A stretch of DNA of 64,000 nucleotides from Obrimoposthia wandeli (taxonomy: Eukaryota): NCBI GenBank assembly GCA_977020255.1, contig CDROCS010004593.1, positions 62,001-126,000 on the forward strand, given 5' to 3'. Under the pieces are notes generated by a model. It saw only the letters and a program-made list of their open reading frames with translations, was not told the DNA's origin and made no database searches. The stretch's first letter is position 1, and every line of letters begins with the position of its first letter. Made by a program: the position numbers and the translations under genes. Positions 1 to 46,904 of the stretch are shown piece by piece.

Positions 1-3000
1 AATAAAAGTAAAGGTATAAAAACGTCTACTTTTAAATGTTGGAACTGTAATAGTGAAAAACACTCATTGAGAGACTGTACGAAATCGTTATATTGTAATA
101 GTTGTAAAAGAAATGGTCATATTGAGAAGTTTTGTAGAAAAACCCATTATATGGAAATGGAGAGTCACGCTGACTTAGAAGAAAGTAGTTTCAATAGGAG
201 TAAACAAAGTGTTTATGAAGTGAAAACTCTTAATAATATGAATAATAATGTTTAAAAAATATATAAAAGTAGTAAAAATAAACCTGTATCTACTACAAAA
301 AATAAAAATTAAGAAAATAAACCAATATGTTTCGGTAGAATTAATGGGCATAGAGAAACACTTCTTTTTGACACGGGCGTAGAAATAAATACAGTTAGCA
401 AAGAAATAGTCGATAAACTTAAAGTGAGCAATCGATCAGAAATTAAATTAAGAAAGTCGAATAAAAAGATAAAATGTGCTGATGGGTTCGTTATACCTAT
501 AAAGTCAGAAGTGTAATGGCTTGTTGATGTGGATGCAATACAAAAAAAGAGTAAATTTATCATAGTAAAGGATCTAAACCCCGGTATCATATTGGGAATA
601 AGAGCTCTAAAATGGTTAGACATTAATTTTACTTTAAATAAAAATGGAATTTATAGTGGATCTACTTTCGTGTTTCTAGAATCAATGCAGAAACAGTGCT
701 TCAGTCTAATAATTTAAACTGTTAGGGCGCTGTTTAGAGAGTCAAAAACAGCAAGAGCCCTGTACTCCTCAAACACTACCGAAACTAGAACAAAATAATA
801 ATGAAAATGTTGTTTATAATGTTCTTAAAACACTGCGTAGTGTAGATGAGCAGAATAAGAGTATTGTTGTAAAGCTGATTGAAGAATTTAGTGATATATT
901 TAGCCTTTCAGAATATGATATTGGTATGACATCAGAAATTGGACATAAAATTGAACTGAAAGACTCGAACCCGATAAGTGAAAGTATTAGACGAATACCA
1001 TTGAGGTTCAGGAAAATGTAGATGAGCTTATTTCAGAAATGCTTAGAAAATATATTATTCAGCCAAGTGTATCGGAATGGAATGCTCCAATTGTAGTAGT
1101 GCCGAAGAAAAACGGAGAAATTCGATTAACGATGGATTTTAGAAGATTAAATAATAAAACAAAGGTACCTACTTTTCCTATACCAGAATCTCAGCAGTTG
1201 TTTGATGCACTTCACGGATCCAAATATTTTAGCGCCATTGATCTTGCCGCAAGATATTATAACATTCCTTTATCTGAAGATGATTTTGAGAAAACAGCTT
1301 TCAGCACTAGAAAAGGGCATTGGGAATTTGTAAGAATGCCCATGGGTCTTGCAATGACTCCAGTAACGTTTCAAAGAGCGATGAAGTTAATTCTCAAGGA
1401 GGAAGATTGGAAAGAATGCCTAATTTAATTTTATGACATTCTTGTGTTTGGAAAAACACAAGAAGAGCATTTGGAAAAACTTAAAAATATTTTGGGTAAG
1501 ATAAGAAAAGCAGGTTTAAAACTTTGCCCAGAAAAAGATTATTTTTTCAGAGAAAATGTAAAATATTTAGGCCATACAGTATCCAAAGAAGGAGTAGCTA
1601 CTGACGAAGAAAAAATTCAGTGTGTTAAAAATTGGCCAAATCCTAGAACACAGGAAGATATGAGAAAATTATTAGGCCTCTGCGGGTACTTTCGAAACTA
1701 TATAAAAGATTATGCTAAAGTAGTGTTAGCACTGGAAACATCATGCATTGATATTTGGAACAAACACAAATCTAAAAAGAAACATGAATTAACTTGGTCT
1801 CATGATATCAAAAAAGCATTTAGTCATTTAAAAAGACTTTTAACAACTGTACCCATTCTAGTTATACCTAATAATAAAGATACATTTATTTTGGACACAG
1901 ATGCTTGTGATGACACGATAGGAGCAGTGCTGTCACAATGTCAAGATGGAAATGAAAAGGTTATCGCATACGCGTCTCATAAATTAACAAAAGATGAACA
2001 TCATTACTGTGTAACAAAAAAATAATTGTTGAGAGTTTATAAATATTCAAAAATGTTTCGGCATTTTCTGTTTGGAAGACGATTTATTATTAGAACTGAC
2101 CATAAATATCTTCTATGGATGATAAATGGAAATACACCGAGTACAAGTCAATTTCATGCATGGTTAAACGAATTAAGCGCTTTTGATATGGATATTAAAT
2201 ATAGAAAAGGAGAGGACCATCTAAATGCGGACTCATTATCTAGAATCCCGGAAGAATGTCATCAATGCACCATGAAACATGTAAACCCAAAAAAGAAACG
2301 AAACGTCAAAGTTATAATGAAAATGAAAATGAAAAGAGAATCAGAGTTTATTGTCGAAATATAGTAGCAGTTAATGAAAATAGCGAGCAAGAAAATAACA
2401 AAAAACATCTCATTAATACTAAAATTAATGAAAGAAAATAAGGCAAATGATCCATATCCAAAAGAATTACAAAATGGAAATAAAGAAGCAAAAACTATAT
2501 GGAAAAATAGTGAAAATTTAAGAATCAGAGGTGACTTACTACACATCATAAAAGAAGATGAGTACAAATTAATTCTACCTGAATCTAGACGATTAGAAGC
2601 CATAAGACAAGCCCATATGATGTATATAGACATATCAAAAACATAAGAGGTCATAGCTCAAATTATTACTGGCCGAACATGAATTTTGAAATTAGACTGG
2701 CTGTGACAAATTGCAAAGAATGTTTAAGACGTAAAGTAGGTAGAACTCATATCAATCAAGAAAAAGGGTCATTGTGTACTGGATACCCATTTGAACAATA
2801 TAGATAGATATTACAGGACCATACCTAGAATCAAGCAAAGATAATATATACATTTTAGGTATCTTTGACAATTTCTCTAAATATCCTATGATGATTCCGA
2901 TGAAAAATGCAACTGCAAAAACTATGTGCAAATATATATTCGAAAGATGGATGAGTTGTTTCGATATCCCTGATAAATCGAAGGAAATCATTTGAAAATG

Positions 3001-3577
3001 AATTAATGTATGAATTGTGTCACATGTTTGAAATAAGAAAAACACGAAGCACACCCTACTATCCGCAAGGTGATGGAATAATCAAAAAGCTATTTGGTAC
3101 AGCTAAGGACATAATATTTGCTACGTCACAATCCAGAAGATGTGATTGGGAAGAAGCTATACCAACAGTCGATTGGGTTTAAGAATGACAGTTAACAGAG
3201 TTACGGGTTTTTCTCCATTTGAAATAATATTTGGATGCAAAATGAAATCTATAATCCAAACAAAAAATGAGCAACTTAGGAAAATAAACAACACCAATGA
3301 GTATATAAATGAACTTAGGAAGATATTAAGTGAAATTCATAAAATGATTCGAGAAGAGACAAAGTTATTTCTACCAAAGAAAATGAAATGTGCAAACGAA
3401 TTAAAGAAAGGAGAAATGGTAATGATAAGAATACTTCCTGGTATTAAAGGAATTGATCAATCCAGATATGAAGGGCCGTATAAAGTATTAAAAATGTTAG
3501 AGAAACTATCTTATCAGTTAGAAAGAATTGCAAATAAAAAGGTAGTGGAAAGAAATATGGTACATATTAAAAAATGA
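1..3577 (+). mobile_element. Degenerate Ty3/Gypsy LTR retrotransposon internal region (gag knuckles-protease-RT-RNase H-integrase), cut by window start
   Basis: Domains in gypsy order: CCHC knuckles (CWNCNSEKHSLRDC, CNSCKRNGHIEKFC, 1-200); LLFDTG protease (361-378); RT WNAPIVVVPKK, YFSAIDL, RMPMGL (1039-1428); RNase H LDTDACDDTIGAVLSQ and IIRTDHK; integrase YWPNM..C..C, YPQGDG, TGFSPF, YEGPYKV. The YxDD motif is destroyed (CLI*FYDILVFG) and there are several stops and frameshifts. Confidence 0.95.
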
Positions 3578-28828: not shown

Positions 28829-30749
28829 TTGGACCAGGTTTCTTTTACATAATTTTTATTTGATACTGAAAAATATTCCTTACTGCATAATTAGACCAAC
28901 CAGATAATATGTAAATCCAATTTTTTTTTTAAATTAGATCTTTGAATGCATACTATATTACTTTGTATTACCTATTATAATTGTAAAATCTTAATAATTA
29001 AATTTACTTGTAATAAAATATAAAGGGTATGGTAAAACTTTTGGCCATTAAAATTTTGAAATATTTACAAAATATATATAATTTAAACAAAATAAATTTT
29101 ATTTATTAAGTAAAATGTTAAATACTTTAACTATTGCAATAATATTTTGTAAAATATTATAATAAAAAAACTACTTTTAATATTATTTGAATGAGTGATT
29201 AAAAATTTTGCCTCGAAGGATAGTTTATATTTATCCTTTATCTTCCATATTCGTTTCATGCTTCCATCATGTTTTGTCTAGTACCCTTGAATCATGATGA
29301 AGATGTTCCATTTTTCAGTTTTCACGTCATTGCCAACTTTCAAATAATCCACAAAAATACTTTCATCAGATCGAATCAATATTGAATTATTATGAATCCT
29401 ATATCCAATGTATATATGATGAAAGATATCATTCAGTTGTTTGATATCTTGTTCATGTATATCTTTGATGATGTAATCAAACTTGATTTTATTCAATTTT
29501 ACATTATTAGTAAAGAGATATGTGATAGGACTCTTGAATAAATACATATCCCATGTGAAATATTGATAACGAGATTGAAATTGAGGCTTCTTTATTTTAT
29601 TGATATGCCTTTCATTGATATCAGAGATATCTTCAATTAGAAGTTAAAGAAAATTCTTAGACTCATTCTTGCTTTTTTCTTTAATGAAATTGTGTTAGCA
29701 AATGATTTGATCTTCTTCATCTTCCTCTGGTGTATTCCTTGGCGTCAACTTCTCGATTTTTTTTGTCAGCATTGTTAGCAGTAATAATAACTGGAATGAA
29801 TAGTTAGTTGTTTTTACTCTACCCAACCTCACCTGATTGGTTAATGATTTAGATTGGTTGTTTACTTTAGTTGTATTTTGGACCAAATTTAATTTTAAAT
29901 CCCATATCACGAAAAGATGTCAAATTATTTAAAAATACTTATTGAACATAATAAAAATTAATTAAATTAAAAAACTGAGTATCAAATTGAAAATAACATT
30001 TTAAATATATTTGTTTAAATTTTTTTTTCTCATTTGTGGCTCATATATATGGCTCATTAATGAAGGTCTTGAATTTATCTAAAATTTTTTAAAATCTCTA
30101 TATTTATTTTTATCAATAAAAATATTGATTATAATAAAACAGCTACGCATAGAAACGGGAAAATTATTACACGAATCATTGGTTTAAAGGGAATAATAGA
30201 TTAAACTATATAATTAATTTTATAATCAAATGTTCAGTATATATTCAAAACAACGAAAGAAAGGCTTTAAATATTTTACAGGATTACGATAATACAATGA
30301 AATCAATAAAATAATAAAAGTCCATGAAGTTTATGGACAAATAAAATAAAATTGTATTTTAAAAAATTTAATGCATAAGAATCATATCAAAGATGAAGAG
30401 TGCTATAGAAGACAAATCAAAAGTGATAAAGGTTTTGTTTCAAATAAATTAGATAAAATAATAAAAACCTTTTAAAATTCTAAGAAAATCAAGTCTAAAT
30501 AACCACATGTATGGTGTTTATAAAGATACATCCAATAATAAATCATTATGTGTGTATGATGGGAGTTTTAGTTGTCAAAACCTAAAATCTTCTACAACAA
30601 CTTCACATTTCCAGAATATATTTGGCTTCTCCTCAAATCATACAAAGAATAACAAAATAATTAGAAGCCATCATAATCAGGAATTTTAAAAACTAAAAGA
30701 CGTTTAAGAGAAAGTTATATTACAAAATTGAAGATATTTTTATCAATTA

Positions 30750-31200: not shown

Positions 31201-31485
31201 AGGATAATTATAAGGAACTTGGAGCTTTGAGTATTTATTACACTTATAAGAGAAAATACATGAAACGTATAATGTAATTTCTGAAGATAAGAAGTAGTTA
31301 TGAAGCAAAATGGAATTTAAAAGCGATTTTAGCTTTAAAGCCGTCTTTACTTGGACTCTGTATGAATTATTGCATTAATTATATTATAAATATATTTTTA
31401 ATTTTTTAATACAAGGGTCAATAATAAATTATTTGAATAAGAGGCTCTCATTAGACAATAAAAGAGGGTTAGTAAGATGTTTGTG

Positions 31486-31493
31486 TATATAAA
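31486..31493 (+). promoter_or_regulatory. Candidate TATA box
   Basis: TATATAAA 35 nt upstream of ATG 31528, where AT-rich flank switches to GC-richer coding sequence. Confidence 0.5.
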
Positions 31494-31527
31494 GACACCT
31501 CCGTTCATTATTTTTCATAAATCAACA

Positions 31528-33345
31528 ATGCCATTCTACAACAACGTTGACCTAGACGAAGAGACGGAGGTTCAACTCTATGGGGATCTCTCTCCAGTGC
31601 AGCAGCAAACGCCACCACTGTCATAATACATTGACTTAGATAGTCAAGAGTCATCGGTGGTGAGCGAAGGAGAAGCAGCAGCAAGAGCGAACCTGTTACA
31701 AGAAGAAGCCTCATTGGCCAGCTCAACTCCAAGAGAAGAACCAATGGACGTGAGAGGTGGGGTACAGAGATCCCAATATATCGATCTGACTAGTCAGGAT
31801 TCGATAGAGAATTGGGAAGACTGTACTCCCAGACAAAACACAAAACCCAATCGTCCGGCAACTTCATTAGTAGCAGCAGGGAGATCCAATCTCTTCGACA
31901 ATTTTGAGGCGGCAATCAAATGCCCCTGGAAATTGATCCCGCTGTCTCAGCCGGAGAAAGTCCTCGCACCAGACTCAGACGAGGAGCTGTTCACCGATGA
32001 TGTACCTTCGGATTGGGAGGAGGACTTGACTCCATTCATCGACGAATGGATACAGCCAAGTATCGGAGCCCCAGGAGCCAACGAGTCAATGGTAGCAGAA
32101 TAGGACGAGGACGAGTGGCACCTGTTCACCGACGATTGGGATGGTCTCACTCCCTCTGCTACTCCGAAAGCAGATAATACAATGCCTGAACCATTCAAAG
32201 GGTCGAAATCTCCTGTTAGGAGAATAAAAGCAACGAATGAGGTTAGACATCATTTATTTTAAATGTTTTTTAATTTCATTTTCAGAAACTTCAACTGGAT
32301 TTGGCACCGTCAGTGACCATGACGGAGAGGCTAATTGAACCGCAATACTTAGCGAGTCAATGCAGCCAGGAGCTGCCAAGGAGTCAGCTCCGATACCTAG
32401 CGTCTCCAGATAATTTTAAGGTAAATTATTTAGATATTAAATTTAATAATTCATATAGATGGAGAACATTCGCGAAGAGGCAACGTCTATTCAACCGGTG
32501 GATAGGAAGAAAGCAGCAGTTAAGAAACCGAAACGCCATCGGGTCAAAACCCTCACGCGGAAGAAGACCAAGTTGGTGAAACAGGCTAACCTGCCCATCA
32601 TTGAGGTAAATTATTTATATGTTTAAATTTTATTAATATTTTGCAGGAACCCGTCCAGATATTTGAGGAGACTTGGGGAGAAGTTACTCCTTTCTCGCGG
32701 AAACGGACGAAGAGGGCAGAGGTGAAGAAGACAAGACGCTCGAGAAAATGTAAAACCTCAATTGGTCATTATTCTGAGACGGTGATTGGTCAGCAGGAGA
32801 TTCTCCAATCTCCAGTGGACGACGGACCAATCCTATATGAGAGGATCCCAGTCTCGCCGATCGAGATAAGTCCGTCCTCAAGTCAACGACGCCTGCAGGA
32901 GACTGCTTCTTCTCGTCCAACAACCAGCCAGAACTTGAAGAGGGCCTGGGATGACGCTGGTTTGGATGAATTCCTGGCGGAACTGGATTCACCGGCAATG
33001 CTTCCAGATTCGCGTTGGCAACAGGATGCCGTCTCACGCCAGCTTCAGCTTGAGAAGGAGGAGAAACAGAAGAAAGCTCCGCGGAAGAGGAAGAGGACTT
33101 CTACGTCGGGACCATCAACATCGGCTGCACCTCCTCCCAAAACGTTGCGGCAACTATTTCCAAAACCTGAGGGAAGGACAATTGCTACAAAGCAACCGGT
33201 GAAGCCGAAAAAGAAACCGGGCCGACCAAAGAAGAAGGAACCAGTACCGCTTTCTCCTATAATACTTAGTCGGAGGGATTACGACCCGAATGATCCCAAT
33301 GATGACTTCGTAAAGATGTTTAAAAATATAATTTATAAACATTAG
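31528..33345 (+). pseudogene. Four-exon gene for a ~565-aa disordered protein with SIM-like, acidic-aromatic and AT-hook-like motifs; two in-frame stops
   Basis: Exons 31528-32241, 32286-32420, 32459-32605, 32647-33345 join in frame through three phase-0 GT-AG AT-rich introns (44, 38, 41 nt). Stops at 31624 and 32101. Confidence 0.75.
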
Positions 33346-33539
33346 TTTCATATGTTTTCTTCTTAATATTTATTTTTTTAAATGTAGAAATACTATCTTT
33401 AAGTTTATTTGCAATGATAAGTTATAGATTTATTAAACACTCATTTGATAAATAAAAATATATCATTTAATTGGATTAAAAAATATCTTTAATTTATATA
33501 TATAGGTTTAAATTTATTAACCTTTTCATAATTAAAAAA

Positions 33540-33860
33540 ATGGAATTCATTAAAATGAAGAGTCTGGTGACGAAGATTGAAGCAAACATCAGAATAAATG
33601 AGAAGAAAGGGGACTTAAAAAAGAGGGTCCTCAATCAAAATTTGTATACTGCTGTCGCGACAGAGTGGAATCATCGGGTGGAGATACAGGATAGGAGGCT
33701 AGCAGAACGCCGTCGATTCGTGGAGTGGAATAAGAATATCGAATTGGAAAAAAGGAAGGTGGATGAAAAAAGAAGAGAAGAGATGGAGGATGTTCGGCGA
33801 GCAGCAAGAAAGAGAATCCTCCAGATTAAACCGGAAGAGGGTCCTTCTACAAAAAAATAA
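33540..33860 (+). CDS. 106-aa charged, coiled-coil-like hypothetical protein
   Basis: Intact ATG-to-stop ORF with coding-like composition in AT-rich flanks; E/K/R-rich C-terminal half. Confidence 0.65.
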   Translation: MEFIKMKSLVTKIEANIRINEKKGDLKKRVLNQNLYTAVATEWNHRVEIQDRRLAERRRFVEWNKNIELEKRKVDEKRREEMEDVRRAARKRILQIKPEEGPSTKK

Positions 33861-33982
33861 ATTTTTGATTATTATTTTGTCTTTTTTGATTATGTTACAT
33901 AGGAGAATTGACAAAATATTCCAATCTTAACATGAAAGTACTTCGTTATAAACAACGGGATTTGCTACAAATTTAGATAATT

Positions 33983-34183
33983 ATGCAGGAATATATCATA
34001 GATTTTGAGGCTTTCATTAACAAAAATGGGGATTATATTATAAAATAATTATGTATTATGGATGTATGCGACTTTTTTCATCCTTTGCATTTCATATTTC
34101 AAATAGATATCCCATTTAAAAGTTTAGATTATAAGAAAAAATTTACTAATTTATATCTAACTAAATATTTCTCAATTTTTTAA
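33983..34183 (+). pseudogene. DnaQ/DEDD-like exonuclease-fold ORF remnant
   Basis: MQEYIIDFEAFINKNGDYIIK*LCIMDV..HPLHFIF: ExoI-like IDFE motif followed by IKEL-like strand (stop at 34046 where E is expected). Downstream part frameshifted. Confidence 0.5.
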
Positions 34184-34366
34184 TCCAATAGGAAAAGAGC
34201 ATGTGTGCATAAATTTTAGTATATAAGCAAACACTTTCTTCATTTAAATCCCCGACAATTTGAAATAATGCCTATGGTAAGAATGTATTTTTATTATTTC
34301 CTTATTAATATTTATTATTTCAGATTACTTGTAACCTATTCCCTGCGTATTGTGGTGCTTCGTACA

Positions 34367-35621
34367 ATGTCTGCATACTACCGGACAAAGTCTCGCGGGC
34401 TTCACTTCTTTGTCTGCCCCTTCGGCAGAACAATGGAGGAGAAGGAGTTTCGAGACTTCTTCAGTGAACATCGAGCTCATCTATCGTGTTTCACGGCCAA
34501 CAAGAAGAGGGATATCATGCAATTGGTGCGCGATTCACAGGTCGCTCCACATCCAATTCCAGTTGCAGTCGATCAACCCTTTTACGGTCCTGCGATTGGT
34601 CTCCCGGCTCCTGATTCTGACCCATCCACTCAAATGTCTAACAATGAGTGGATGAATGACATATCCCAGTCAGATTTTGAGATAGAGCAGTGGAGCGATA
34701 ACTCGTGGTTGGAGACCATTGAGGAATCCGATTTCATCGAGATGTCGGACGACAGCTGGATGGATTTCGTCAATGAAGAGGACTTCATTCCAGCTCAACT
34801 TGGATTGCCTTCATTAGGTATTTTTTATTATTATTTTTAAATCATATATTTTATTTTTTAATATATATATTTTATTTATATTTTTTATTCAGGAAATACC
34901 GTTCTACAATCGTCATCTGCTACAACAGATATGCCTCCACCATCGCGAGTGCCTACATTGATGTTAGCACGCCTTAGAGGTAATAACTTTTAAAAATATA
35001 TTTATTTTTTAATATATTTCAGCAGCACTAACCTCTACAACAACCGCTTCTTCATCGGCAAGGTCAGCGGTCCCTTCAACATCAGCTACAGTTGCCTCAA
35101 CATCGGCAGCATCAACAATAGCAGCAGCTTCCACATCAGCTTCAATTGTCTCAACATCGACAGCATGTCCAATAGCAGCACCTTCAACCTCAGCTGCAAT
35201 TGTCTCAACTATTAATATAAATAGTTGTCTTCCCATTCAATTAGGGGGAGGTTTGTCAGCGACAAACGGAAGAAAGAGGCGAGGCCAATTTTTTAATAAG
35301 GTCCCACCCAAAAAACGTAGAGAAAACGGTGCTACTATAGAGTATCACCTAAATAATAAATATGTTATAGTTAAGGTGCCATTAGGAAATGAAATTTTAT
35401 TAAACGTAGGTGTAGATTCAAATATTGAAAATCTTTTAAAATCAGAGGTGACTAAATTAGGACAGGCTAAGGTTCAATTTTGCGCAACAGTGCAGTTTAA
35501 AAATGTCAATGAGGAAACTAAAACTGGGGTAATTTCACATAAAGCAACTGTTTTTTATGATAATTTTGTAACTGAAATTGGAAGAAACCTTGATGAAAAA
35601 TTGCTAATTATAGCGAGTTAA
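34367..35621 (+). CDS. Spliced N-terminal extension of the pPolB reading frame (acidic Trp repeats, Ser/Thr/Ala linker, QLGGG, basic motif)
   Basis: Exons 34367-34817, 34893-34979, 35023-35621 join in frame through phase-1 GT-AG introns of 75 and 43 nt and run without a stop into track ORF 35253. Confidence 0.7.
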
Positions 35622-38610
35622 GTAGTGGATGGACTCTAGTTAGAATTCACGATGTTAGCTTTGTTCTAACAAAGTTCACTGACATGATATATCTTTCGGG
35701 GAGTTCATACATTCCTTCGCCTAGATCTCTTCAACTTTCACGTTCCATTGTTAACGTACAAAACAGTGATAACCTTTGCTTTCTGTATAGCGTGTTGGCC
35801 ATCCTCAAAGGGATGTAATTACTGAGCATAGAGAGCGTGTCAGTAAATATACCCTTTTTTAAATGAATTGCAGTATCATGGAATAGATTTTCCTGTTAAA
35901 TTAACTGCGATATCAAGATTTGAACATCTTAATAACTTGAGTATTAATGTATTCAAATATAATACTGATATCCCAGTTAATGTAACAGATGAAGAAATTT
36001 TTAAAAATCCTTTTGTAGATGTAATTTATAGGAGCAAAAATGAGGGGACTCAGGTCAACTTAATTTTGCTCGAACATAATAAAAAATTCCATTATGCTGC
36101 AATTCCCAATTTAGATCGTCTTCTAAATTTAGATAATGGAGCCTTACCGGTTAGGATAAGGTGTAAGTGGTGTCATAGATGTTTGCATGGGTTCCGATCC
36201 GAGCTCTCTTACAGCAAACATCTGACATTATGTTCACTGAATCCTGATGACAATACACTATATAGCATGCCTAAGGATAAGGATTTAAAATTCAGGGATT
36301 GAGCAAAATGCATACCCATGGAATTCAGGGTGTATGCAGATTTTGAGTCAATTTTAGCATTGCACGACCAGTATGAGAGTATTCACCTACCGGCTTCGGC
36401 AGGACTACTATTCTTAGGCCCCAATATTACCCAGTATCATAAATTTTCCGGTCCAAATTGTATTTTAGATTTTATGTTAAAATTAGAGGAATTAGGAACA
36501 ACAATTGTCAAACCGTGGTATCATCTCAATGCTCATCAAGCAATGATCATGCAGGCATAGACTGGGTTAATTTTAATTCTTGTAGATTATGTTATTTGTG
36601 TGGAACCCAGTCTAAGTTAGTCAGAGATCACGATCATGTTACGGGCCGATACTTGGGAGCGGCGTGCAACCTTTGTAACCTTGGCCGTCGTCTCCCTAAA
36701 AAACCACGCATTCCCATCGTGTTTCATAACCTCAAAGGATATGATTTGCATCATATACTTAAATACGCGTTGGGTACATTAAGCTCTTGGGAAATTTCAT
36801 GTATACCTCAAACTTCAGAGAAATATTTATCTTTAACTGCATATACTGAATTCTGCAGTTTAAGATTCATAGATTCTCTGCAGTTTTTGAGCGGGTCTTT
36901 AAAAAATTTAACGGCATCTTTAAATGCATGGCCAATTACACAGTCAGTGTTCCCAGCTTCGGTTAACGATAAGGGGATTTTTCCGTATAAATTTGCGAAA
37001 ACTTTCGCAGATTTAGAAAATACAACTGAAATCCCACCCATAACTGAATTTGAGGGTGTAAGTCTTCAAGACTATAATGAGACCCGTACATTTTGGGTGA
37101 ATAATTGTCAAAATCTTCTCGAATATATGCTTTATTATATGAAGTTAGACATTTATCTTTTAACTGATGTGTTTGAGTCCTTTAGTGTAAAGTCTTTAGC
37201 AGAAGATGGGCTAGATCCCATGCATTTCTTTAGTTTACCTGGTCTTTCATGGGCAACAGCAATAAAAACTCTTAAAATTAATATCGAGTTACTGCAAGAT
37301 CCCGCGATGTATCAAATGTATGATTATGGTATACGCGGTGGAATGACTTTTGTCAACAAACATCATGTTGTCAAAAATCAATCCACGGAGATTCTGTACA
37401 TCGATATTAATAATTTGTATGGGTGGGCGCTTACTCAACCTCTACCTCATGCCAACTTTAAGTCGGTTTATGATGTGGATCAGTTGAATAAGTTGATGAC
37501 AGATTTGGCTACTGTTGATACAGTTTCATCCGACGTCGGCTATTTGGTTGAGGTGGACATAAAAATCCCTCCCAATGTGCATGATAAATTAGATGATCTT
37601 CCAGTAGCGCCTGTTCATCAATGCCCACCTAATTCAAAGGTTAAGAAATTATTGTTAACCCATGAAGACAAGTTGAATTATGTTGTGCATTGGCGGCTTC
37701 TTCAATTCTACTTAAAGTTGGGAGCAAAAGTTACTCGAATTCATCGTGCTATAAGCTTCAGTCAAAACTTTGTGTTTAAAGACTATATTGAGAAGAATTC
37801 AAGAAAACGTAATTTGGCCACTAGCAAATTCGATCGAGATTTTTACAAGTTAAAAAGTAATAGTCTCTTTGGAAAAACTGTAGAGGACTTGCGGAAACGT
37901 ATTTGTCTACGGTTTAGCAATGATGAGCGTAAACTAATAACATATACTAGAAAGTACAACTTCAAGGGTAGTTTTACAATTGCAGATGACTTGGTAGCAG
38001 TGTTATTAGGAAAACAGAGTATTTGTCTCGATCGACCGAGTTATATAGGTCAAACGGTTTTAGACATTTCTAAACTCAGAATGTATGAGCTTCAATACAT
38101 AGAATTGGAGAAATACCGACAAGAATTTAATTGTGAGATTAAAATCGCAGCTGGGGACACTGACTCTTTCTTTTTAGAATGTAGGAATGTTAGTTTAAAT
38201 AATCAATTATTACCAGCAATGTTTAGGGACAACTTACTAGATACCCATAAATATCCCGCTAACCATCCTCTACACTCTATGAGTTTAAAGGACATTATCG
38301 GGAAATTTAAGGATGAAAGCGAGGGACAGGTTTTTCTATGATGATTGTATTTTCCTACGCCCTAAATGCTACAGTTTACATGCATCTAATAATACATGTT
38401 CAATGAGAGCAAAGGGTGTGTACACATGAGGCCTACCGGAAAGTTTATGATACTGGGTGTATTGAAAGCGTTGAGCAAACTAGATTTATTTCAAGAGCCC
38501 ATCAACTGTATTCCCATAAATCAACCAAAATCGCGTTGAGTAGTAATGACGACAAGCGCTTTTGGGTAGAAAAGAACGCTAGCCTGGCTTATGGACACTT
38601 CAGAATTTAA
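35253..38610 (+). pseudogene. polB: Protein-primed family B DNA polymerase (Polinton pPolB), disrupted
   Basis: N-terminal GSSYIPSP..IVNVQNSDNLCFLYSVLA and GIDFPV; ExoI RVYADFES; ExoII FHNLKGYD; motif A YIDINNLYG; motif B KLKSNSLFGK; motif C GDTDS; C-terminal ALSSNDDKR..LAYGH. At least six stops or frameshifts (~35620, 35810, 36300, 36560, 38340, 38420). Confidence 0.95.
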
Positions 38611-38883
38611 ACGGTTTTTATTTTATTTTAGTTTTTTTAGTTTTTTAAAATTTTAGATCCCTATGGCACCTAGACTCTAACTTATTTGTTATTTCAATAC
38701 TTTTTTAGGATGGACCTTATTTATTATGCCTTATCTTTGCTGACATATCTCATTGTGATGTTGTGATTAATAAATGTATTAAAAAAAATTGTCTTATGTC
38801 TTTTTTTATTTTACCCTTAAATTTTTAGAGATTTAAAAAATAATTCAAAATAAAACATTTGAAATTTTTATTTTTATAACACA

Positions 38884-39264
38884 CTAATCGTTTTGCAACG
38901 ATAACCATAAAATACATAAATGTCCACAGTTTCTCGTCGCAGGATCCTGATATTGTATCTTGTTGTAAAATACTCTTCTTCGTCCTTTTTGAATAGTTGA
39001 AACAAGTTTGTGTGGATAATACATTGCAAGTGGATCAAATACATGTATTGTCCACTCTCTAACATAAATAGCTATCCAATGTTCTCCTGGTAAATTCAAA
39101 GTATGAGTATTGATAATGTAACCTCCAGATTGAAAAAATGGAATCATATCAATAGGATAAACTCCATTGAATTTATCACCCAGGACCTTCTCTGCTGATT
39201 CTTTTACTTGTTTTGAACTAAATAAAAATTAATAAATATAAATTTAAAATATGTCTTACTCCAT
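38884..39264 (-). CDS. Adenain-like (Ulp1/C5-type) cysteine maturation protease, two exons
   Basis: GEHWIAIY, VFDP and QYQDPATRNCGHLC give the His/Asp/Gln/Cys catalytic set. ATG 39264, a 42-nt GT-AG intron (39259-39218) and MDSKQVKE..FNGVYPIDMIP restore the N-terminus. Confidence 0.9.
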
Positions 39265-39265
39265 T

Positions 39266-40495
39266 CTATAATATGACAGTTCTGTTTTTATTGATTTGTA
39301 TTTCCGAATCAAATACTCCGTAAATAAGCACCGTAGTAGGATTTGTTAAAGCTGCATTGAACTTAATTTCTAGTCGTAAATTTCCATCCTTTGGTAGTTG
39401 GCATTGGTTTATATCAAAGTCTGGTGCCAAAACAAATGTGAAGAACGGGCAGCTGTTTTTAAAGTCAGTGAAAGAAATACCATTGTTTATATTTTTATCT
39501 AGTTGACCCAAATTTCGAATAATAGATTGGGTATAAGCAAAAGCATAAGCGTTACCTTCGAAATCTGTTTTATATGTTTCACGATAATCAGTATTTCTTG
39601 AAAGTGTCACCGAACCTACACTAAGATTGTCAAATTGAGTTGCATCTGTCGTATAATTTCCTAGAAACTTTGCAGTTTTTTGAAAAGAAATTAAAATGAA
39701 TTTCGGTAATCTTACATCACCAAAAATTTGATCTTTATTAAAAGCTTGTGTACCCGTACCTAAAGAATAAGATATAAGTTTAGTTTCTCTAATAGGATAA
39801 CAAGCATTGTTTTTTTCCATTCCTATATTATGTGCCATTAAAACTGATTGCTCGGTTTTAACTCTTCGAGCATACAATTTTGCATCCAAAATATCAAGTC
39901 TAGGTTTTAGAATGTCCGTGCTTATCAAAGAAAAATTCCATTTATTACGTTTCAAACGAAGATGTACATTAACACCGGGAATTAAATATTTCGGTTGTTC
40001 AAAGAAATTCAATCTCAAAGACCCACACATTTCGTAAGCTTTAGAACCTGCAATCCATTCTTTGCGAGTTGCATCAGTTTTATCATAACCAATGGTTGCC
40101 AAAATAGTATTTTGAGTATCAGTACTATAATTCAAAAGACTTTCAATCAAAGCTTTATGAGCATAGGAAGAATTTCCACCTTCAATTTTGACATTATTAA
40201 GAGTAACAATGGCATCATTAAATAAAGAATTAAATAGATAATTTACAGGTGTTACATCGGCATTTTCATCTAAATTAGTACCATCCCGATTTAATACTTT
40301 TATTTGAACATAAAGCAAAGTATCATTCAAATCTAAATACTTGCTATTGGAACCATTAATATTAAATTCTAAATCGGTTAAAGTGGTTCCTGAAACTGAG
40401 TTAACAAGGAATATTTCTTCAAAGGAAGCATTATCTACAACTACTTGTGGAAGCGGTTTATCAAAAATACATAATTCAGTTTTGGCGCAACTCAT
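39266..40495 (-). CDS. Major capsid protein (double jelly roll, Polinton PY/hexon-like), intact 409 aa
   Basis: N-terminus CAKTELCIFDKPLPQ, NYLFNSLF, YLIPGVNVHLRLKRN and C-terminal GNLRLEIKFNAAL match the Polinton capsid pattern; position between protease and PX-like gene. Confidence 0.9.
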   Translation of the reverse strand: MSCAKTELCIFDKPLPQVVVDNASFEEIFLVNSVSGTTLTDLEFNINGSNSKYLDLNDTLLYVQIKVLNRDGTNLDENADVTPVNYLFNSLFNDAIVTLNNVKIEGGNSSYAHKALIESLLNYSTDTQNTILATIGYDKTDATRKEWIAGSKAYEMCGSLRLNFFEQPKYLIPGVNVHLRLKRNKWNFSLISTDILKPRLDILDAKLYARRVKTEQSVLMAHNIGMEKNNACYPIRETKLISYSLGTGTQAFNKDQIFGDVRLPKFILISFQKTAKFLGNYTTDATQFDNLSVGSVTLSRNTDYRETYKTDFEGNAYAFAYTQSIIRNLGQLDKNINNGISFTDFKNSCPFFTFVLAPDFDINQCQLPKDGNLRLEIKFNAALTNPTTVLIYGVFDSEIQINKNRTVIL

Positions 40496-40869
40496 TTTGC
40501 AAATATTGTTCCTTCAACATTTTTACGTTTGTTTATATTAATTTTTAGCTTCTTTTTACTTTTAAATCCACTACCTCCTTGGCTTTTATTTGATTTACGT
40601 TTTCTAATCAAATTAGCAACTTCAGGTAAAACATTATCAAGTTCATCAAGTGCATGCTTCTTAAAAGTTGGTATTAGTTTATTGTCATTAGATGAAAGGT
40701 AATCCTTTCCTAATTTTGATATAAATCGCCCGAGTCTCTTTAAAAGAGGATAGGCAAATCTACCTAATGTTCTAAGCCAGCCAGATCCGTATTGTTTACC
40801 AATAAAATATGGTAATTCTCCACCGTGTTGGCTTTGACTATAAGCTTCAACTATTGCTGGATTCGCCCT
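40492..40869 (-). pseudogene. Polinton PX-like small basic core/virion protein; start codon apparently mutated (AGG)
   Basis: Open 125-codon frame missed by the track: ANPAIVEAYSQSQHGGELPYFIGKQYGSGWLRTLGRFAYPLLKRLGRFISKLGK...QGGSGFKSKKK. Its TGA overlaps the capsid ATG (ATGA). Confidence 0.7.
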
Positions 40870-41906
40870 TTTGTTTTCTTAAATGTATTGTTAAACTTGT
40901 CTTGGACCCATACGTGAAATCTATTAGTTGTGCGGAATCATCTCTAATATTTACTTCAATATTGTTTATAGAAAAGAGAGAAACTGGAAGATACATTGGT
41001 TGATCTATACACATACCGACAGCATCCTCATCTCTAGTTTCATTTTTAGATATCCATATTGTTCTCAAAAGTGGAACTCGCTGTCCTCCTACAAGCGTTG
41101 ATTCTATTAAATTAGTATAAATATATAAATGCTTAACAACATTTAAAGGTTTTGCCTTATTTTTTAGCTTTTATGGTTTTTATTGTATGGGTTTCAAGGG
41201 TATTTCTGTTTAAACCAAGGTTTTTAGTGAGTTTATCATCAAATGAAACCCGTTTTATGCTGCTCTTTACTGTAAACGTTAATTTACCATTTAATGTTAC
41301 ACATTTATCCAAATATTCACTACATTCCTTCTGTATTAATTTACATAAATACACTTCACTATCTATTTTATTATCTTTTGAAAACCTTTTCAGTTCCACT
41401 ACAGTCTTTGGTCTCGTTTCAAGTAACAACACTTTTGCTACTCTACCAGGAACATTTTTAACCGATTTAGATGAGACAATATCCCGTTTATTACGAGCTA
41501 CTGTTTGTTCACTATCAAAACTGAATTGAAGAGCTTCTTTTTTAGATTCAAAATTAATTTTAATAACTTGAAGAAATTTTAATCGATTTTTAAATCTGAC
41601 TTTGTTATTTTCAAATATTACTTTCACTTCTTTATCTATACAATTGTAATAGAATTGTCCTTTACTATGAAACCCGATCACAATTTCAGTTGTTTTTTCA
41701 TGATCAACTTCTTTTGTAAACGAAATATGTGAGTTTTTTTTGATAGTAATTGGAGAATAATAAAAAGAAAATTCTGTTAAAGCCGCTTCCCATTCTCCTT
41801 GGAGATTTATAGAATTTTCCCAATCGATAATAAAGCTACTAGCGTCATTATCTGGTTGAGTCTTCGGACATCCGTTACTTGGTAAAACCATATACATAGA
41901 ATTCAT
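40847..41906 (-). pseudogene. Minor capsid/penton (single jelly roll, Polinton PZ-like), one frameshift at ~41165
   Basis: MYMVLPSN..PDN..GEWEAALTEFSF N-terminus; after a shift in an A-run, LYIYTNLIESTLVGGQRVPLLR..PMYLPV..IEVNIRDD..LTIHLRK C-terminus. Confidence 0.9.
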
Positions 41907-42930
41907 ATTATATTAGATGCTGATATCCAAGTTGGATCTGAATAACCATGCCATTTAACATAGTATTGTTTATGTTTACCGACACCCTTAGATTTTAATA
42001 TTTTTTGAATACGGAAAACGCTAGGTTTATTTGATATTACTTGTAGTTCTTGCTCGTAAAATTTACCGTGAACGATATTATTGTCAGCATCTTTAATAGT
42101 ATACATTATTGGATTACTCTTTTGATCAATTTTACTTATACAAAATATTTCATCGCTCCAATTCTAATCAAAGTTTTTAATAAATGGAGTAGAGCTAATT
42201 TTCGAAATTCGAACAGATTCGTTTTTCTTATATTTAGCTCTTTTAATTTTTTCTTTTTTATTCCTGTTCATCCAAATGTCCATAGAGTTTTTATTAGTAA
42301 CATCAACAGGTCTCATTCCCTTGAGACCTCTATGTTCAGAGTGATTATATGCATGTATTATTTTAGGTAAAACTTGGATCCATTTTTTATTTCCTTCTTT
42401 TGTGAAATACTTTTTATTCGACCTCTTAGAGTACGATTAAATCTTTCTACTACTGCTGCTTTGTATTGTGAAAACACAGAGTAATGATTTATATTATTTT
42501 GTTTAAATAAGGATTGAACTTGCTTATTATAAAATTCATTCCCTAAATCAGTTTGTACATTTTGTGGAATGTCCTCTTTCAATATTTCTTTAATGGCTTC
42601 AAGCATAGCTATTGAAGACTTTGCTTTAACTGGAATTGCACGAGCAAACCTGCTAAATACATCAATACATGTTAAAATATATCGATATCCCTTATTAATG
42701 GAAGAATATGGGATCATCTCCATCAAATCCATTTGCAATAAATTATTAGAACCGCTGGTTTTGTAAGCTCTAGTTGGAAACCTTCTTCTCATCGGCTTGT
42801 TCAGACTGTAGGCTAACTGGTCGCTCAGCCATTTCTGCGTTTTCTTGTAATTTTGTTTTGTTCTTTTTGCTAATTTTGAAACTCCTGTGTAGCCAATTGG
42901 ATCTTTTGGATTGAACCATATCTTCTCCAT
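41903..42930 (-). pseudogene. Retroviral-like (rve) integrase with C-terminal chromodomain
   Basis: QMDL, IDVFSRFA, QTDLGNEF, VERFNRTL give D-D-E; after a frameshift (~42410) YNHSEHRGLKGMRP and FYEQELQ; chromodomain FRIQKILK..YYVKWHGY. One stop near 42160. Confidence 0.95.
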
Positions 42931-43016
42931 TACAACAATTTGAATAGAAAGAAAATTTAAGTTTAGGTAAAGAAGGGCTAGCACCCATATCTTTAGCTGA
43001 TTTTAGAAATAATTGT

Positions 43017-43344
43017 TTATGAACGTGTCGCAGCTATAATACTACTGATAATTGAAGCAACAACTGGAATAACAGCCCCTATGAAACCATCATTCTGTTT
43101 AAGAATAATATTTCGTTTCCTTTTTTTTTTTTACATTAGCAATATCTAGAAGAGTTTTTCTATATTTCTTTAATATATTTTTCCGATTTCCAACTTTTAC
43201 TCGACCCAAAACTATATTATACAAAACTTCCAATAAATCATCTACAACAAAGGATGGAAATGCTTTAAGAATAATCATTCTCTTATTAGAAGAGGCTTTG
43301 ACTAAAGCTTTAAAATAGGGTATGCTTCTTTGTATTTTCTTCAT
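43017..43344 (-). pseudogene. Polinton PW-like small protein, frameshift in A-run at ~43125
   Basis: LVKASSNKRMIILK..DDLLEVLYNIVLGRV, then RKRNIILKQNDGFIGAVIPVVASIISSII: basic stretch, QxGG-like site and amphipathic tail typical of this Polinton ORF. Confidence 0.7.
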
Positions 43345-43359
43345 TTTAATAAAAAAGGT

Positions 43360-43513
43360 TCAATTTAAATATTGTTTATATTCGAAGCCATTTAAGTTTT
43401 TTTTATTTTTAACTACAGATTTGATTAATTTTTTCACTTCTTTTTCTTAATGATTCTTTTTTTGATTTCTTAGATTTTACTTTACGTTTTACTATCAACT
43501 TTGTAAAAGGCAT
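43360..43513 (-). pseudogene. ~50-aa lysine-rich peptide (one frameshift)
   Basis: MPFTKLIVKRKVKSKKSKKRIIKK then EVKKLIKSVVKNKKNLNGFEYKQYLN*, filling the gap between ATPase stop and PW start. Confidence 0.4.
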
Positions 43514-43520
43514 TGCGAAT

Positions 43521-44168
43521 TTATTTTTTATAATTGTTCTCTATTTGTTTATAAACAGTTACTCCCTTAGAATTAAATATGTCTGTTAAAACACGTAAAT
43601 CATCTGGGCAAGCTTGTGTAAAGTCAATAAATATATACCCATGTGCTTGTTTAGCAGCATCGTGGAATGAATCAACTAGAAAGTTCTTATTTTGAGGAAA
43701 TGCCTGTCTGGCCACAAAATCAACAACTGTTTGATCTCTAGGATTTTTAAATAAAACTAAGTAATGTACATTAAGATTTCTTGTTCTATGGTGACCTCCT
43801 TGGTGAAACAGATTTTGAGTGATAAATATAACTGTAACTTCACGATGTCTTGCAATCTTTGTAAATAAATTATTAAAGTTCGATTCCTTGTTAGCTTCCT
43901 CATACAAATCATCAATTATTATTACATCTTCTTTTTTCAATCTTTCACACCAATTTGCATCAAATCCTTCAATAAATTTTATACCCTTCAACTTGCAAAC
44001 TTCTGTTTTGGTTAACCCGCTTTCCCCTCCTCCACCATGATGCCAATAAATATTTTTGAAACTAGATTTGAAAAGAGATTCATTTTGCAACAATTTACAG
44101 ACGAAATGTGTCTTTCCACTTCCACTTGGGCCAACTATTTGAAATACAGCATTATTATTTAGCTCCAT
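43521..44168 (-). CDS. A32/FtsK-like genome-packaging ATPase, intact 215 aa
   Basis: Walker A GPSGSGKT, Walker B IIIDD, RH motif (KIARHRE), FITQNLF, YLVLFKNPRD, GYIFIDF. Confidence 0.95.
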   Translation of the reverse strand: MELNNNAVFQIVGPSGSGKTHFVCKLLQNESLFKSSFKNIYWHHGGGGESGLTKTEVCKLKGIKFIEGFDANWCERLKKEDVIIIDDLYEEANKESNFNNLFTKIARHREVTVIFITQNLFHQGGHHRTRNLNVHYLVLFKNPRDQTVVDFVARQAFPQNKNFLVDSFHDAAKQAHGYIFIDFTQACPDDLRVLTDIFNSKGVTVYKQIENNYKK

Positions 44169-44205
44169 TGCTTATACTCTTTCATTTTTAATATTGTTTA
44201 TATTA

Positions 44206-44478
44206 TCATAGAAGTTTCCTTATTGAAATGTACAATGTTAGAGCTATTGTAGATGAAATACAAAAATTAATTAATGAATATTTGGCTATAATTTTATTTA
44301 TTTGTGTACGATTTCTAAATTCTCGAATAACGTGTGATCTAACCAATATTTCAATGTTATCTCTTGTTATATCATTATTTTTTAATTCTGATAAAATTTA
44401 TTTACCCCTAATTTTTCCAGAAAATATTTCATCGGCAAGCCGATCCACTTCATTGTCTCTATTTATAGTATTATTCAT
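44206..44478 (-). pseudogene. 90-codon ORF with C-terminal hydrophobic helix, one in-frame stop
   Basis: MNNTINRDNEVDRLADEIFSGKIRGK*ILSELK...KYSLINFCISSTIALTLYISIRKLL; same orientation as neighbours and fills the ATPase-TBP gap. Confidence 0.45.
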
Positions 44479-44562
44479 TTGAAACAATAAGTTTAAACGG
44501 GGTTTGTTTATAGAAAAAAGATAACAAGATGTAATAAGATATATTTTCTAAAATCAAATCAA

Positions 44563-45003
44563 TTAGACTGGATAATCAAAATTTTTCAGTCCCAATATCA
44601 TAACTTTACCACTGGAAAATATATTTACACATAGCGGTTTAAACTTCAAATAACTGAGAGCAGGAAAAATTTCTGGTTTAAACATGCATTCTTCTTTCAT
44701 TTTCTCTGCAGTTTTAAAAAGATTTATCTGTTTCCCGAGATTAGCCGAAATCGTGATTGATTGTATTGCAGTGATTTGAATACCAAATGGTAAATTGAAC
44801 CCAAGCATTGGTATTTTGCATCCCATAACACGACAATTTCCTAAAGAATTCAATATAAAAATAAAATAAAAAACTAACCTGTAGGAAAAATAACAACTGT
44901 GAAATTGTCAAACTTTCCTACATATTTTCTCGGCATCCATTCATTGAATGGTAAGTACGAAACATCATCTTCTACCTTTATAATTTATATTTACGAGTTT
45001 CAT
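44563..45003 (-). pseudogene. Compact TATA-binding-protein-like (two TBP repeats), 38-nt intron and one frameshift
   Basis: Repeat 2: IQSITISANLGKQINL..FKPEIFPALSY..VNIFSSGKVMILGLK (TBP: IQNIVGS..YEPELFPGLIY..LIFVSGKVVLTGAK). Repeat 1: MKLVNINYKG..TVVIFPTG/NCRVMGCK joined across GT-AG intron 44878-44841. Confidence 0.85.
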
Positions 45004-45181
45004 TAGACTGAAATTGTATTCTGTAAAATCTTCTTTATATATGTCTGAACCTGCTTTTTTATTGCACGTTTCTTGTAATTATCTTGCAAACCTATTATAA
45101 TTGGATGATATATTTAGTCCAATCAAATTCAATGCTTTTGTTATATTAACCAATGAGATTCATGTTTTTGTTAGAAATTAG

Positions 45182-45188
45182 TATAAAA
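45182..45188 (+). promoter_or_regulatory. Candidate TATA box in the divergent intergenic region
   Basis: TATAAAA with initiator-like TCACAGT ~30 nt downstream (45211) and ATG at 45220. Confidence 0.5.
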
Positions 45189-45219
45189 GAATGCGCCATT
45201 GGAGGACAAATCACAGTAA

Positions 45220-45696
45220 ATGCATTCATATCAAAGACAATTATCAACGATGGACGATAGCCAACGGGTATTAAGCGATGACGAAGAAATGTTTGAAGAA
45301 TCGGATAAGGATATGTATGAAGAAGTGAAACAATATTTCAAATACAAAGTCAGATTCTTGAAGAAGGCTCAGCTGATTGCTTTAGTAAATCCTGTGACAA
45401 TTGAAAGAAGAAAGTTCAGCTACTATCTATCAGGTATTCAAAAACCTGATTTTCAATATCTTAAACAGAAAATAGAAAAGGCAGTTCCAAATTTTACTTT
45501 CAATAAGAACGAATTTTATATCCGAGGAGCCGATGAAGCATTTCTAGATGACTATGGAAGATATGTTGATATTGATGCGTTTCCGAAAAAGAAGCAATGG
45601 ACTGTAACAATTCGACTTTATGGTTACAAGAAAGATGAAATGGGAACAAAGTTGCCTATGTGGAAAATTGAACGTGCTCATATTTATATGTTTTAA
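45220..45696 (+). CDS. Unknown protein, paralogue A (148-158 aa, acidic N-terminus)
   Basis: Intact ORF; start at 45220 or 45250; aligns by eye to the next ORF. Confidence 0.8.
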   Translation: MHSYQRQLSTMDDSQRVLSDDEEMFEESDKDMYEEVKQYFKYKVRFLKKAQLIALVNPVTIERRKFSYYLSGIQKPDFQYLKQKIEKAVPNFTFNKNEFYIRGADEAFLDDYGRYVDIDAFPKKKQWTVTIRLYGYKKDEMGTKLPMWKIERAHIYMF

Positions 45697-45829
45697 CTTT
45701 TGTGTGTAATAAATTGTAATCGGTTTTACTATGTTTCTTTCATTTAATAATCAGTTTTATTTGTATCTTATTTGTATATTATGTATATTTTTTATAAACA
45801 TTGTTTTTAATCAGTTTCCTTATTTTAGA

Positions 45830-46217
45830 ATGGATAAAAGATGTGTAGCAAATTTTTATTATCCAGAAAGAATTTCAAAAGGAAAACTGTGTAATATATT
45901 AAAGAGGCATCAAATTATACGAGTTATAAATCCTGTGAAAATATCAAAAGTGGAGAAAAAATATCTCATCGAAATTTTAACAACAACTGATTTTGATCAA
46001 CTGAAAAATATTTTGGGATTTTACATTCCTGATTATGTATATGAAGGAAATTGTTTCGAGCTTGAAACTGATCCCAGTCTGGATTTTAAAGATTGCTCCA
46101 ATTCTAGATGAAGAACTATGGAATATCTCAATACGTCTGAATGGATATTTTGCTGATGACGGGACAATGCAGCCTCTCTGGACTTTGAGTGAAGCCAATA
46201 TGTTGTTTTATGTTTAA
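45830..46217 (+). pseudogene. Unknown protein, paralogue B, one frameshift at ~46085
   Basis: MDKRCVANFYYPE..LKRHQIIRVINPVKI..TDFDQLK..IPDYVY, then (shifted) WNISIRLNGY..GTMQPLWTLSEA. Confidence 0.7.
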
Positions 46218-46342
46218 TAAATATTTTGAAAAATAATTTTGTCTCGTATTTTGTTTTTGCTCCTCTAAATTATATAGATCTGACCGATGTTTTTCGTGCC
46301 TGTAGATCAAGAATGAAGCCCGCCCCAAAGGGGCGGGCGGAG

Positions 46343-46599
46343 NNNNNNNNNNNNNNNNNNNNNNNNNNNNNNNNNNNNNNNNNNNNNNNNNNNNNNNNNN
46401 NNNNNNNNNNNNNNNNNNNNNNNNNNNNNNNNNNNNNNNNNNNNNNNNNNNNNNNNNNNNNNNNNNNNNNNNNNNNNNNNNNNNNNNNNNNNNNNNNNNN
46501 NNNNNNNNNNNNNNNNNNNNNNNNNNNNNNNNNNNNNNNNNNNNNNNNNNNNNNNNNNNNNNNNNNNNNNNNNNNNNNNNNNNNNNNNNNNNNNNNNNN
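46343..46599. other. Assembly gap (257 N)
   Basis: Run of N; flanked by a GC hairpin on the left and a tandem array on the right. Confidence 1.
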
Positions 46600-46603
46600 G
46601 TGT

Positions 46604-46737
46604 GAGAGCGAGACATCCTTACATCGCCAAGCTAGTCTGTGACCTATATGAGAGCGAGATATCCGTACATCGCCAAGCTAGTCTGTGACCTATATGAGAG
46701 CGAGATATCCGTACATCGCAGGACTAGTCTGTGACCA
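46604..46737. repeat. 46-bp tandem repeat, at least 3 units, abutting the gap
   Basis: gagagcgagatatccgtacatcgccaagctagtctgtgacctatat starts at 46604, 46650, 46696. Confidence 0.9.
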
Positions 46738-46760
46738 ATGTCGGTCCCGAGCCCTTCGCC

Positions 46761-46867
46761 CCCCCTTGTCTTTTAAAACCGTGCATGTGTGTGGAGTAAA
46801 ATTTCACTCCACACACCTACACGAAATTTCACTCCACACACATGCACGGATTTAAAGGACAAGGGGG
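46761..46867. repeat. Subterminal palindrome (~45-bp arms)
   Basis: cccccttgtcttttaaaaccgtgcatgtgtgtggagtaaaatttc pairs with gaaatttcactccacacacatgcacggatttaaaggacaaggggg with ~3 mismatches; 17-nt loop repeats part of the arm. Confidence 0.9.
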
Positions 46868-46874
46868 AGGGGGG

Positions 46875-46904
46875 TGTGGATTAGACCGGACACATCCACC
46901 TACT
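46875..46904 (-). repeat. Polinton right terminus (AGTAGGT... read inward)
   Basis: Reverse complement AGTAGGTGGATGTGTCCGGTCTAATCCAC; followed by ATCGGT and a return to AT-rich DNA. Confidence 0.8.

Follow-up and report, generated by a model that had tools for sequence, protein, structure and literature searches.

The 64,000-nt stretch of the Obrimoposthia wandeli genome analysed here (GCA_977020255.1, contig CDROCS010004593.1, positions 62,001-126,000, forward strand; hereafter the window) contains a Maverick/Polinton element in which four genes, an accessory gene, the polymerase gene (pPolB), an adenain-type protease gene and a TBP-like gene, are interrupted by short GT-AG segments (Table 1). 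Comparison of this copy with its sister copies and with distant relatives makes it very likely that these eight segments are U2-type spliceosomal introns that were gained and inherited by the element lineage and that need the host spliceosome for their removal. By its gene content the element is a Maverick/Polinton proper, integrase and pPolB both being present; the term Polinton-like virus, under which an earlier description of this DNA (the initial annotation) had placed it, does not apply in the narrow sense, which denotes elements without the pPolB-integrase pair. In what follows, G000 is the genome assembly carrying the window, L numbers are metagenome loci and P numbers are database proteins.

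Table 1. Predicted introns, genes and termini of the Maverick/Polinton element in the window (window coordinates)
Feature	Position	Strand	Remarks
Intron i1	32242..32285	+	44 nt, accessory gene
Intron i2	32421..32458	+	38 nt, accessory gene
Intron i3	32606..32646	+	41 nt, accessory gene
Intron x1	34277..34323	+	47 nt, phase 0 after pPolB codon 3
Intron i4	34818..34892	+	75 nt, in-frame stop inside, pPolB 5' part
Intron i5	34980..35022	+	43 nt (29-47 nt among copies), pPolB 5' part
Intron i6	39218..39259	-	42 nt, phase 2 in protease codon 2
Intron i7	44841..44878	-	38 nt, phase 1 in Gly of F-x-T-G|x-C-R-x-M-G, TBP-like gene
Maverick/Polinton element	31426..46904		window copy decayed, cut off at left end, left terminal inverted repeat (TIR) missing
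Accessory gene, family unassigned	31528..33345	+	four exons; about 562 aa in sister copies
Small gene with D-x-E motif	33903..34180	+	partly deleted in window copy; 43% like L229:9591-10052
pPolB gene	34268..38607	+	PF03175, E 1.5e-30; three introns in 5' part, intronless catalytic body
Adenain-type cysteine protease	38884..39264	-	exon 1 39264-39260 (5 nt); exon 2 39217-38884
Major capsid protein, probable double jelly roll	39266..40495	-	intronless; 410-aa open reading frame (ORF), 199 relatives
Probable minor capsid (penton) gene	40850..41912	-	frameshifted in window; collinear with single ORFs of relatives
rve integrase with C-terminal chromodomain	41906..43002	-	PF00665, E 7.2e-11; PF00385; frameshifted in window
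Packaging ATPase (A32-like)	43521..44171	-	PF04665, E 9e-7; intronless
TBP-like gene	44563..45003	-	PF00352, E 1.3e-11; two exons, exon 1 frameshifted in window
Right TIR	46280..46904		internal tandem repeats; partly N in window; inner edge approximate

The initial annotation had listed seven introns, and the positions, lengths and GT/AG ends that it gave are all correct, with AT contents of 82-95%; an eighth, x1, had been overlooked. The segments in the left arm stand out as sharp AT islands within sequence of up to 46% GC. Its further claim, that removal of the segments restores reading frames, is borne out in most sister copies and there only with all introns of a gene taken out, the window copy itself staying broken by stops and small indels. 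In tests run on natural copies of family A with the junction codon masked, the accessory gene reached at least 500 aa in 21 of 31 copies once i1, i2 and i3 were all removed, and in none of the 31 for every subset. With x1, i4 and i5 all removed, 20 of 25 copies had an open pPolB 5' part joined to the polymerase frame, a result that any subset gave in at most one of the 25 (of 31 loci, 6 failed to anchor and are not counted), and the TBP-like frame extended over at least 120 aa in 23 of 30 copies when spliced and in none when unspliced. Among the pPolB 5' indels common to at least two copies, five of the six within introns have lengths not divisible by three, and the only one in an exon has a length that is.

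The splice ends are preserved as well. In sets made up of the best-matching copies, the window's own copy included in each, GT and AG are both intact at i1 (30/30), i2 (29/30), i3 (29/30), i5 (21 of 22 located copies), the protease intron (20/20, and 27/30 in a second protease set) and the TBP-like intron (29/30); in the 25 aligned copies of i4, GT is kept in all and AG in 22. A shuffle test returned 7 matches against shuffled means of 0.5-1.2, with 0 of 100 shuffles as high in two runs, and carries little weight because its filter was written after the candidates had been seen. A looser filter lists 15 further unvalidated GT..AG intervals, some of them nested variants, and a loose scan also picks out AT-rich GT..AG candidates at 33345-33387 and 45754-45814 (+), in untranslated or intergenic sequence. 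The window copy is itself decayed, which might suggest that the segments are random AT-rich insertions acquired by a dead copy after its integration; this is refuted by their presence in essentially all sister copies, in other families and in other genomes. The statement that core genes are affected stands for the protease and for pPolB, whose 5' part contains i4 and i5, and does not extend to most core genes: introns were sought in the polymerase body and in the integrase, penton, ATPase and capsid genes and none was found, the breaks relative to the single ORFs of relatives amounting to -20 to +25 nt.

The protease intron can be followed far beyond family A. A TBP family search revealed Maverick families B-E in G000, with proteases 52-56% and capsids 51-58% identical to those of the window; a distant-protease search of the same assembly returned family A only. 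The intron lies after the ATG plus two bases in families A (42 nt), B (40 nt), D (39 nt) and E (48 nt), family C being left unscored since its single available copy has a broken protease 5' end. Seventy metagenome loci were fetched with a capsid alignment; 33 of these reach the protease 5' end, of which 15 carry an intron of 37-47 nt at the same site and 18, inspected by eye, do not. A scan of IMG/VR with the capsid alignment found no relative. In the intronless loci L218 and L263, ATG GAT TCG stands directly behind the capsid stop, which is the very junction predicted for the window, and the database proteases P0009, P0010 and P0013 begin in the same register as the predicted spliced protease. 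Intronless relatives are contiguous at the predicted protease and TBP-like junctions; for i1-i5 and x1 the support consists of the frame tests. Donors in a set of 15 lineages compared with one another read GTAAGT (10), GTAAGA (2), GTAATT (2) and GTGAGT (1), all 15 introns end in AG, and of 105 pairs of interiors 6 are closer than shuffled sequence at p<0.05, roughly what chance would give.

These junctions bear on the view that the segments are unspliced AT-rich spacers or regulatory islands (promoters, terminators), with internal starts or separate ORFs downstream. Chance GT..AG pairs are plentiful in AT-rich DNA, and some protease lineages do offer an internal Met, but intronless relatives agree exactly in phase with the predicted junctions of the protease and TBP-like genes, one extended donor prevails beside random interiors, and three introns together restore the frame in each of two genes, all of which renders this explanation highly improbable. 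Frame dependence, the indel pattern, splice ends kept beside diverged interiors, and intronless relatives all speak for the spliceosomal introns that had been proposed.

The history of the protease intron was read from a capsid tree of 34 rows, obtained by a quick search, midpoint-rooted and without bootstrap; near-duplicates (L215, L223, L230), the split L245 and loci without protease, except L213, were left out. All 16 intron rows fall into one clade (SH-aLRT 100) together with 2 near-identical intronless rows and the unscored L213, all 15 rows outside this clade are without the intron, and the character changes 2 times on the tree versus a shuffled mean of 11.4. On the midpoint-rooted topology the intron maps as one apparent gain and one apparent exact loss. 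The strongest point added to the initial annotation is this clade-wide intron, which the outgroups lack and which shows one apparent exact loss. A quick protease tree of 65 rows is poorly resolved and offers a hint at most, placing 9 database proteases with tail-like or short N-termini in a 16-row group with the G000 families (support 80). That ORF-based annotation would miss such products, as had been anticipated, is visible in the databases: P0002, P0004, P0005 and P0015 start with an apparent translated intron tail, and P0001, P0003, P0006 and P0014 start at an internal Met.

In families A, C, D and E and in L213, the first F-x-T-G|x-C-R-x-M-G motif of the TBP-like gene is interrupted by the intron, whose length is 37-40 nt, or about 70 nt in family E by way of an ATT microsatellite. 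The intron is absent from family B, L216, L229, L237, L240, L244, L255 and P0164, and its distribution is patchy. Several intronless TBP-like forms read CAG|G at the intron site, CAG|G being a proto-splice context. For pPolB, comparison by eye finds an ATG|GT..AG segment at the gene start in family D, matching the place of x1, and further candidate introns in the 5' regions of family C and L216; by eye, the 5' regions of family B, L220 and L229 hold no candidates.

Such comparisons also help to assess whether the introns arrived with captured host genes, carried as cargo in the manner of nematode Mavericks. The accessory gene adjoins the left end, is GC-richer (0.46) and has three introns, and GC-rich intron-bearing cargo genes near the left TIR are reported by Widen et al. 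(10.1101/2022.07.12.499685). Capture is plausible for i1-i3, but leaves unexplained the introns of the protease and of pPolB, viral core genes with intronless outgroups; the TBP-like gene is likewise intronless in outgroups, and host TBP genes have their introns at other positions. As a source of the introns, cargo capture is possible but doubtful. Recent insertion of introners into integrated copies, a process described for Maverick-like elements of dinoflagellates, where introners occur in about 25% of the viral elements (Gozashti et al., PMC11957031), is a further candidate. Four of the 28 pairs of window introns beat shuffles at an uncorrected p<0.05, mostly neighbours (i1/i3, i2/i3, i2/x1, i4/i5). 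Introns common to all copies examined and to distant lineages would nevertheless predate the expansion of the element, and the interiors are of low complexity and unrelated across lineages, with no strong likeness among the eight, so that recent introner insertion appears quite improbable; introners may still lie at an ancient origin of the introns, no genome-wide search for look-alikes having been made.

The suggestion that the narrow size of about 40 nt mirrors that of host introns is likewise upheld. A purpose-written small gene finder made 101 intron predictions in 28 myosin, chaperonin and TBP loci of the host, of which 51 with gap-free paralogue support were taken as validated and 50, including all those in TBP genes, were dropped. 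Twenty-two of the 51 measure 36-55 nt (median 44.5) and 29 are longer. The 12 short viral introns in G000, those of 75 and 71 nt being left out, have a median of 40.5 nt (Mann-Whitney p 0.02 against the host short introns) and sit in the host short-intron class, slightly shorter and more AT-rich; viral donors are extended and viral 3' ends T-rich, like those of host introns. Among the host chaperonins, about 20 intronless full-length chaperonin-like genes occur beside intron-bearing CCT subunits, a large expansion either of retro type or in tandem. A head-to-head pair of TBP paralogues, separated by about 1.2 kb, is located at G000:C238:871798-874002, and further TRF-like genes are found in G000 on C968, C60 and C1092.

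Several points weigh against inherited spliceosomal introns or limit how far they can be generalized. The introns are predicted from DNA comparison. Substitutions in i1-i3 (rate 0.011) are not above the exon rate (0.015); similar rates are expected for young, neutrally decaying copies, and the comparison gives introns no support. Introns i1-i5 are supported inside family A alone, whose copies are about 90-97% identical, and the family D counterpart of x1 was recognized by eye. The capsid tree is quick, bootstrap-free and midpoint-rooted, and near-copies inflate its contrast with shuffles; genes are exchangeable between elements, so this tree need not fit the TBP-like gene. Finally, in some lineages (L231, P0001) an in-frame Met lies a few codons from the start of protease exon 2, so that nearly the whole protease could be made there from unspliced RNA.

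The element itself is delimited on the left by the limit of alignment to sister copies, at about 31420-31426, and ends on the right with CCACCTACT at 46904, beyond which the flanking DNA varies from copy to copy. The right end motif is present in 22 of 27 anchored copies, and the left end motif, in the left TIR, in 17 of the 20 sister copies shown; TIRs with AGT-type ends, a Maverick/Polinton trait, are thus found in the family. Six copies were tried for target duplications: of the six left-end stretches, four had no terminus, one had a different terminus, and one, the sole copy with both true ends recovered, had a 6-bp duplication. Stops or small frameshifts mark the decay of the window copy in the accessory gene, integrase, penton gene and TBP-like exon 1, and both stops and frameshifts break pPolB, which is collinear with ORFs of 1089-1298 aa in relatives. 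Neither the two largest accessory-gene pieces nor the L229 relative of the small D-x-E gene gave a Pfam match. The protease matches PF00770 weakly (E 0.039), with His-Asp-Gln-Cys positions visible in the alignment and 1165 relatives found. The capsid sequence had no match in Pfam or among PDB sequences; its top match in the Atlas is 'double jelly roll-like' (0.97), with PF21738 on 65% of members and a recognition value of 2149, below the tool's 2300 mark. The neighbouring gene at 40850..41912 is presumed to encode the penton from its position. An intronless relative of the TBP-like gene matches solved TBPs (E 2e-12), and the gene may steer transcription of element genes. A two-repeat TBP-like gene of about 135-150 aa is regular in this Maverick group, including distant intronless relatives; besides the window it is carried by L171, L174, L177, L179, L213, L216, L229, L237, L240, L244, L255 and L272. 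Two tandem penton-like genes occur in L229, L230 and L233 (L216:5906-6925, L229:5616-7684, L233).

G000 is a 1.35-Gb animal genome, with intron-bearing myosin, chaperonin and TBP/TRF genes. First-look searches returned 2403 (DNA), 19768 (TBP family) and 25324 (protease) candidates, which are not copy numbers and which point to thousands of element copies. Mavericks pack the assembly densely; they fall into at least five divergent families and often adjoin or are nested in one another. Within the window, an ORF at 29233-29643 (-), which resembles the Maverick gene at 45220-45696 and the relatives of that gene at a level of 22-30%, is probably a fragment of another Maverick. The segment 16836-28824 is a 12-kb near-perfect inverted repeat whose arms, 97-100% alike, enclose about 2.3 kb of tandem repeats; it has no long ORF and looks like a foldback or non-autonomous element; a decayed gypsy-like retrotransposon pol, with reverse transcriptase and RNase H, lies at 713-3577 (+).

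If the segments are inherited spliceosomal introns, the element would be transcribed in the nucleus by host RNA polymerase II and its transcripts spliced by the U2 machinery. The protease intron would have been gained once at the stem of the clade and lost exactly once, and the TBP-like intron gained within the clade at an AG|G-type site, with several lineages missing it; the introns of the pPolB 5' part and of the accessory gene would be younger, family-level gains in fast-evolving sequence. Lengths may be held near 40 nt by two factors, the intron-spanning recognition of short introns in the host and the size limit of the element. An unspliced protease message stops at codon 2-3, and an unspliced pPolB message before the catalytic domains, so that both particle maturation and replication would require splicing; any phase-2 GT(A/G)A donor makes unspliced protease RNA read Met-x-stop, which therefore adds no independent evidence. 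In those lineages that were inspected by eye, the protease donor lies about 1-35 nt past the capsid stop, which by the usual 50-nt rule would be too close for exon-junction-dependent decay of the capsid message. Retention of the introns is most likely a ratchet, in that once fixed they are hard to lose. An expression benefit, suggested by the position of the core-gene introns at ORF 5' ends, is conceivable though rather unlikely. In human cells, HUSH silences intronless elements (PMC8770142), and by analogy an anti-silencing benefit is possible, although a HUSH-like system may not exist in this host. More speculative still is the idea of an animal Maverick clade defined by the protease intron just past the capsid stop as a splicing switch, unspliced RNA giving capsid and Met-x-stop and spliced RNA giving protease, in which the 5' introns of pPolB and the TBP-like gene would serve as host-like marks that allow escape from silencing and a very large copy number.

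Among known systems, adenoviruses have a related protease and pPolB and are expressed in the nucleus by host polymerase II with splicing, the first codons of their polymerase and terminal-protein ORFs coming from a tiny upstream exon. Their splicing is long-range and alternative from shared leaders, whereas here an integrating element carries short, local introns that resemble those of its host. Spliceosome-type intervening sequences inside the element are shared with the dinoflagellate Maverick-like elements (PMC11957031); the introners there are young, repeated and mostly post-integration, and the introns here appear old, conserved in position, diverged in sequence and host-sized, in an animal lineage. 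Elsewhere, cryptophyte PLVs (Polinton-like viruses) carry group I introns (PMC12220804), and some transcripts of PLV regions in Cymbomonas have introns, which were interpreted as a sign of host genes or of domestication (PMC10675990). A figure of adintovirus-like elements labels TBP-like genes (Starrett 2021, PMC8502044), and the available text on a Maverick expansion in Dugesia leaves introns unmentioned (10.64898/2025.12.11.693146). A literature search turned up no account of Maverick core genes with spliceosomal introns that are inherited, which is a weak negative; Repbase may annotate multi-exon Polinton genes.

The closest comparisons are with other animal elements. Nematode Mavericks likewise have a GC-richer intron-containing gene adjoining the left TIR, but their core genes are described as intronless and the introns as belonging to cargo genes (Widen et al., 10.1101/2022.07.12.499685), in contrast to the core genes interrupted by predicted introns, inherited across divergent families, in O. 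wandeli. With vertebrate Mavericks and animal adintoviruses (PMC8097293, PMC8502044) the element shares pPolB, rve integrase, ATPase, adenain protease and capsid genes, TIRs ending in AGT.., a 6-bp target duplication and a length of about 15-16 kb. For intact vertebrate elements, Barreat and Katzourakis (2021, PMC8097293) state that no introns were seen in the genes, consistent with Kapitonov and Jurka 2006; the window element departs from this trait, which is descriptive and not a formal criterion, through the predicted introns in its protease and pPolB, and it differs further in having a TBP-like gene as part of the element. In published surveys the core genes of Mavericks/Polintons are taken to be intronless, and bacterial-style gene callers are employed on that account (PMC8097293, PMC10120064), one survey giving as its reason that endogenous viruses 'do not contain introns' (PMC10120064). 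A conserved protease intron, together with lineage-specific introns in pPolB and the TBP-like gene, would mean that such elements can depend on nuclear splicing and that their proteins are mis-called in databases. Gain of introns into originally intronless viral genes, and their exact loss, would moreover be traceable here with intronless sister lineages as controls, and clear gain events of this kind are rare material for learning how introns arise and come to have a host-set size.

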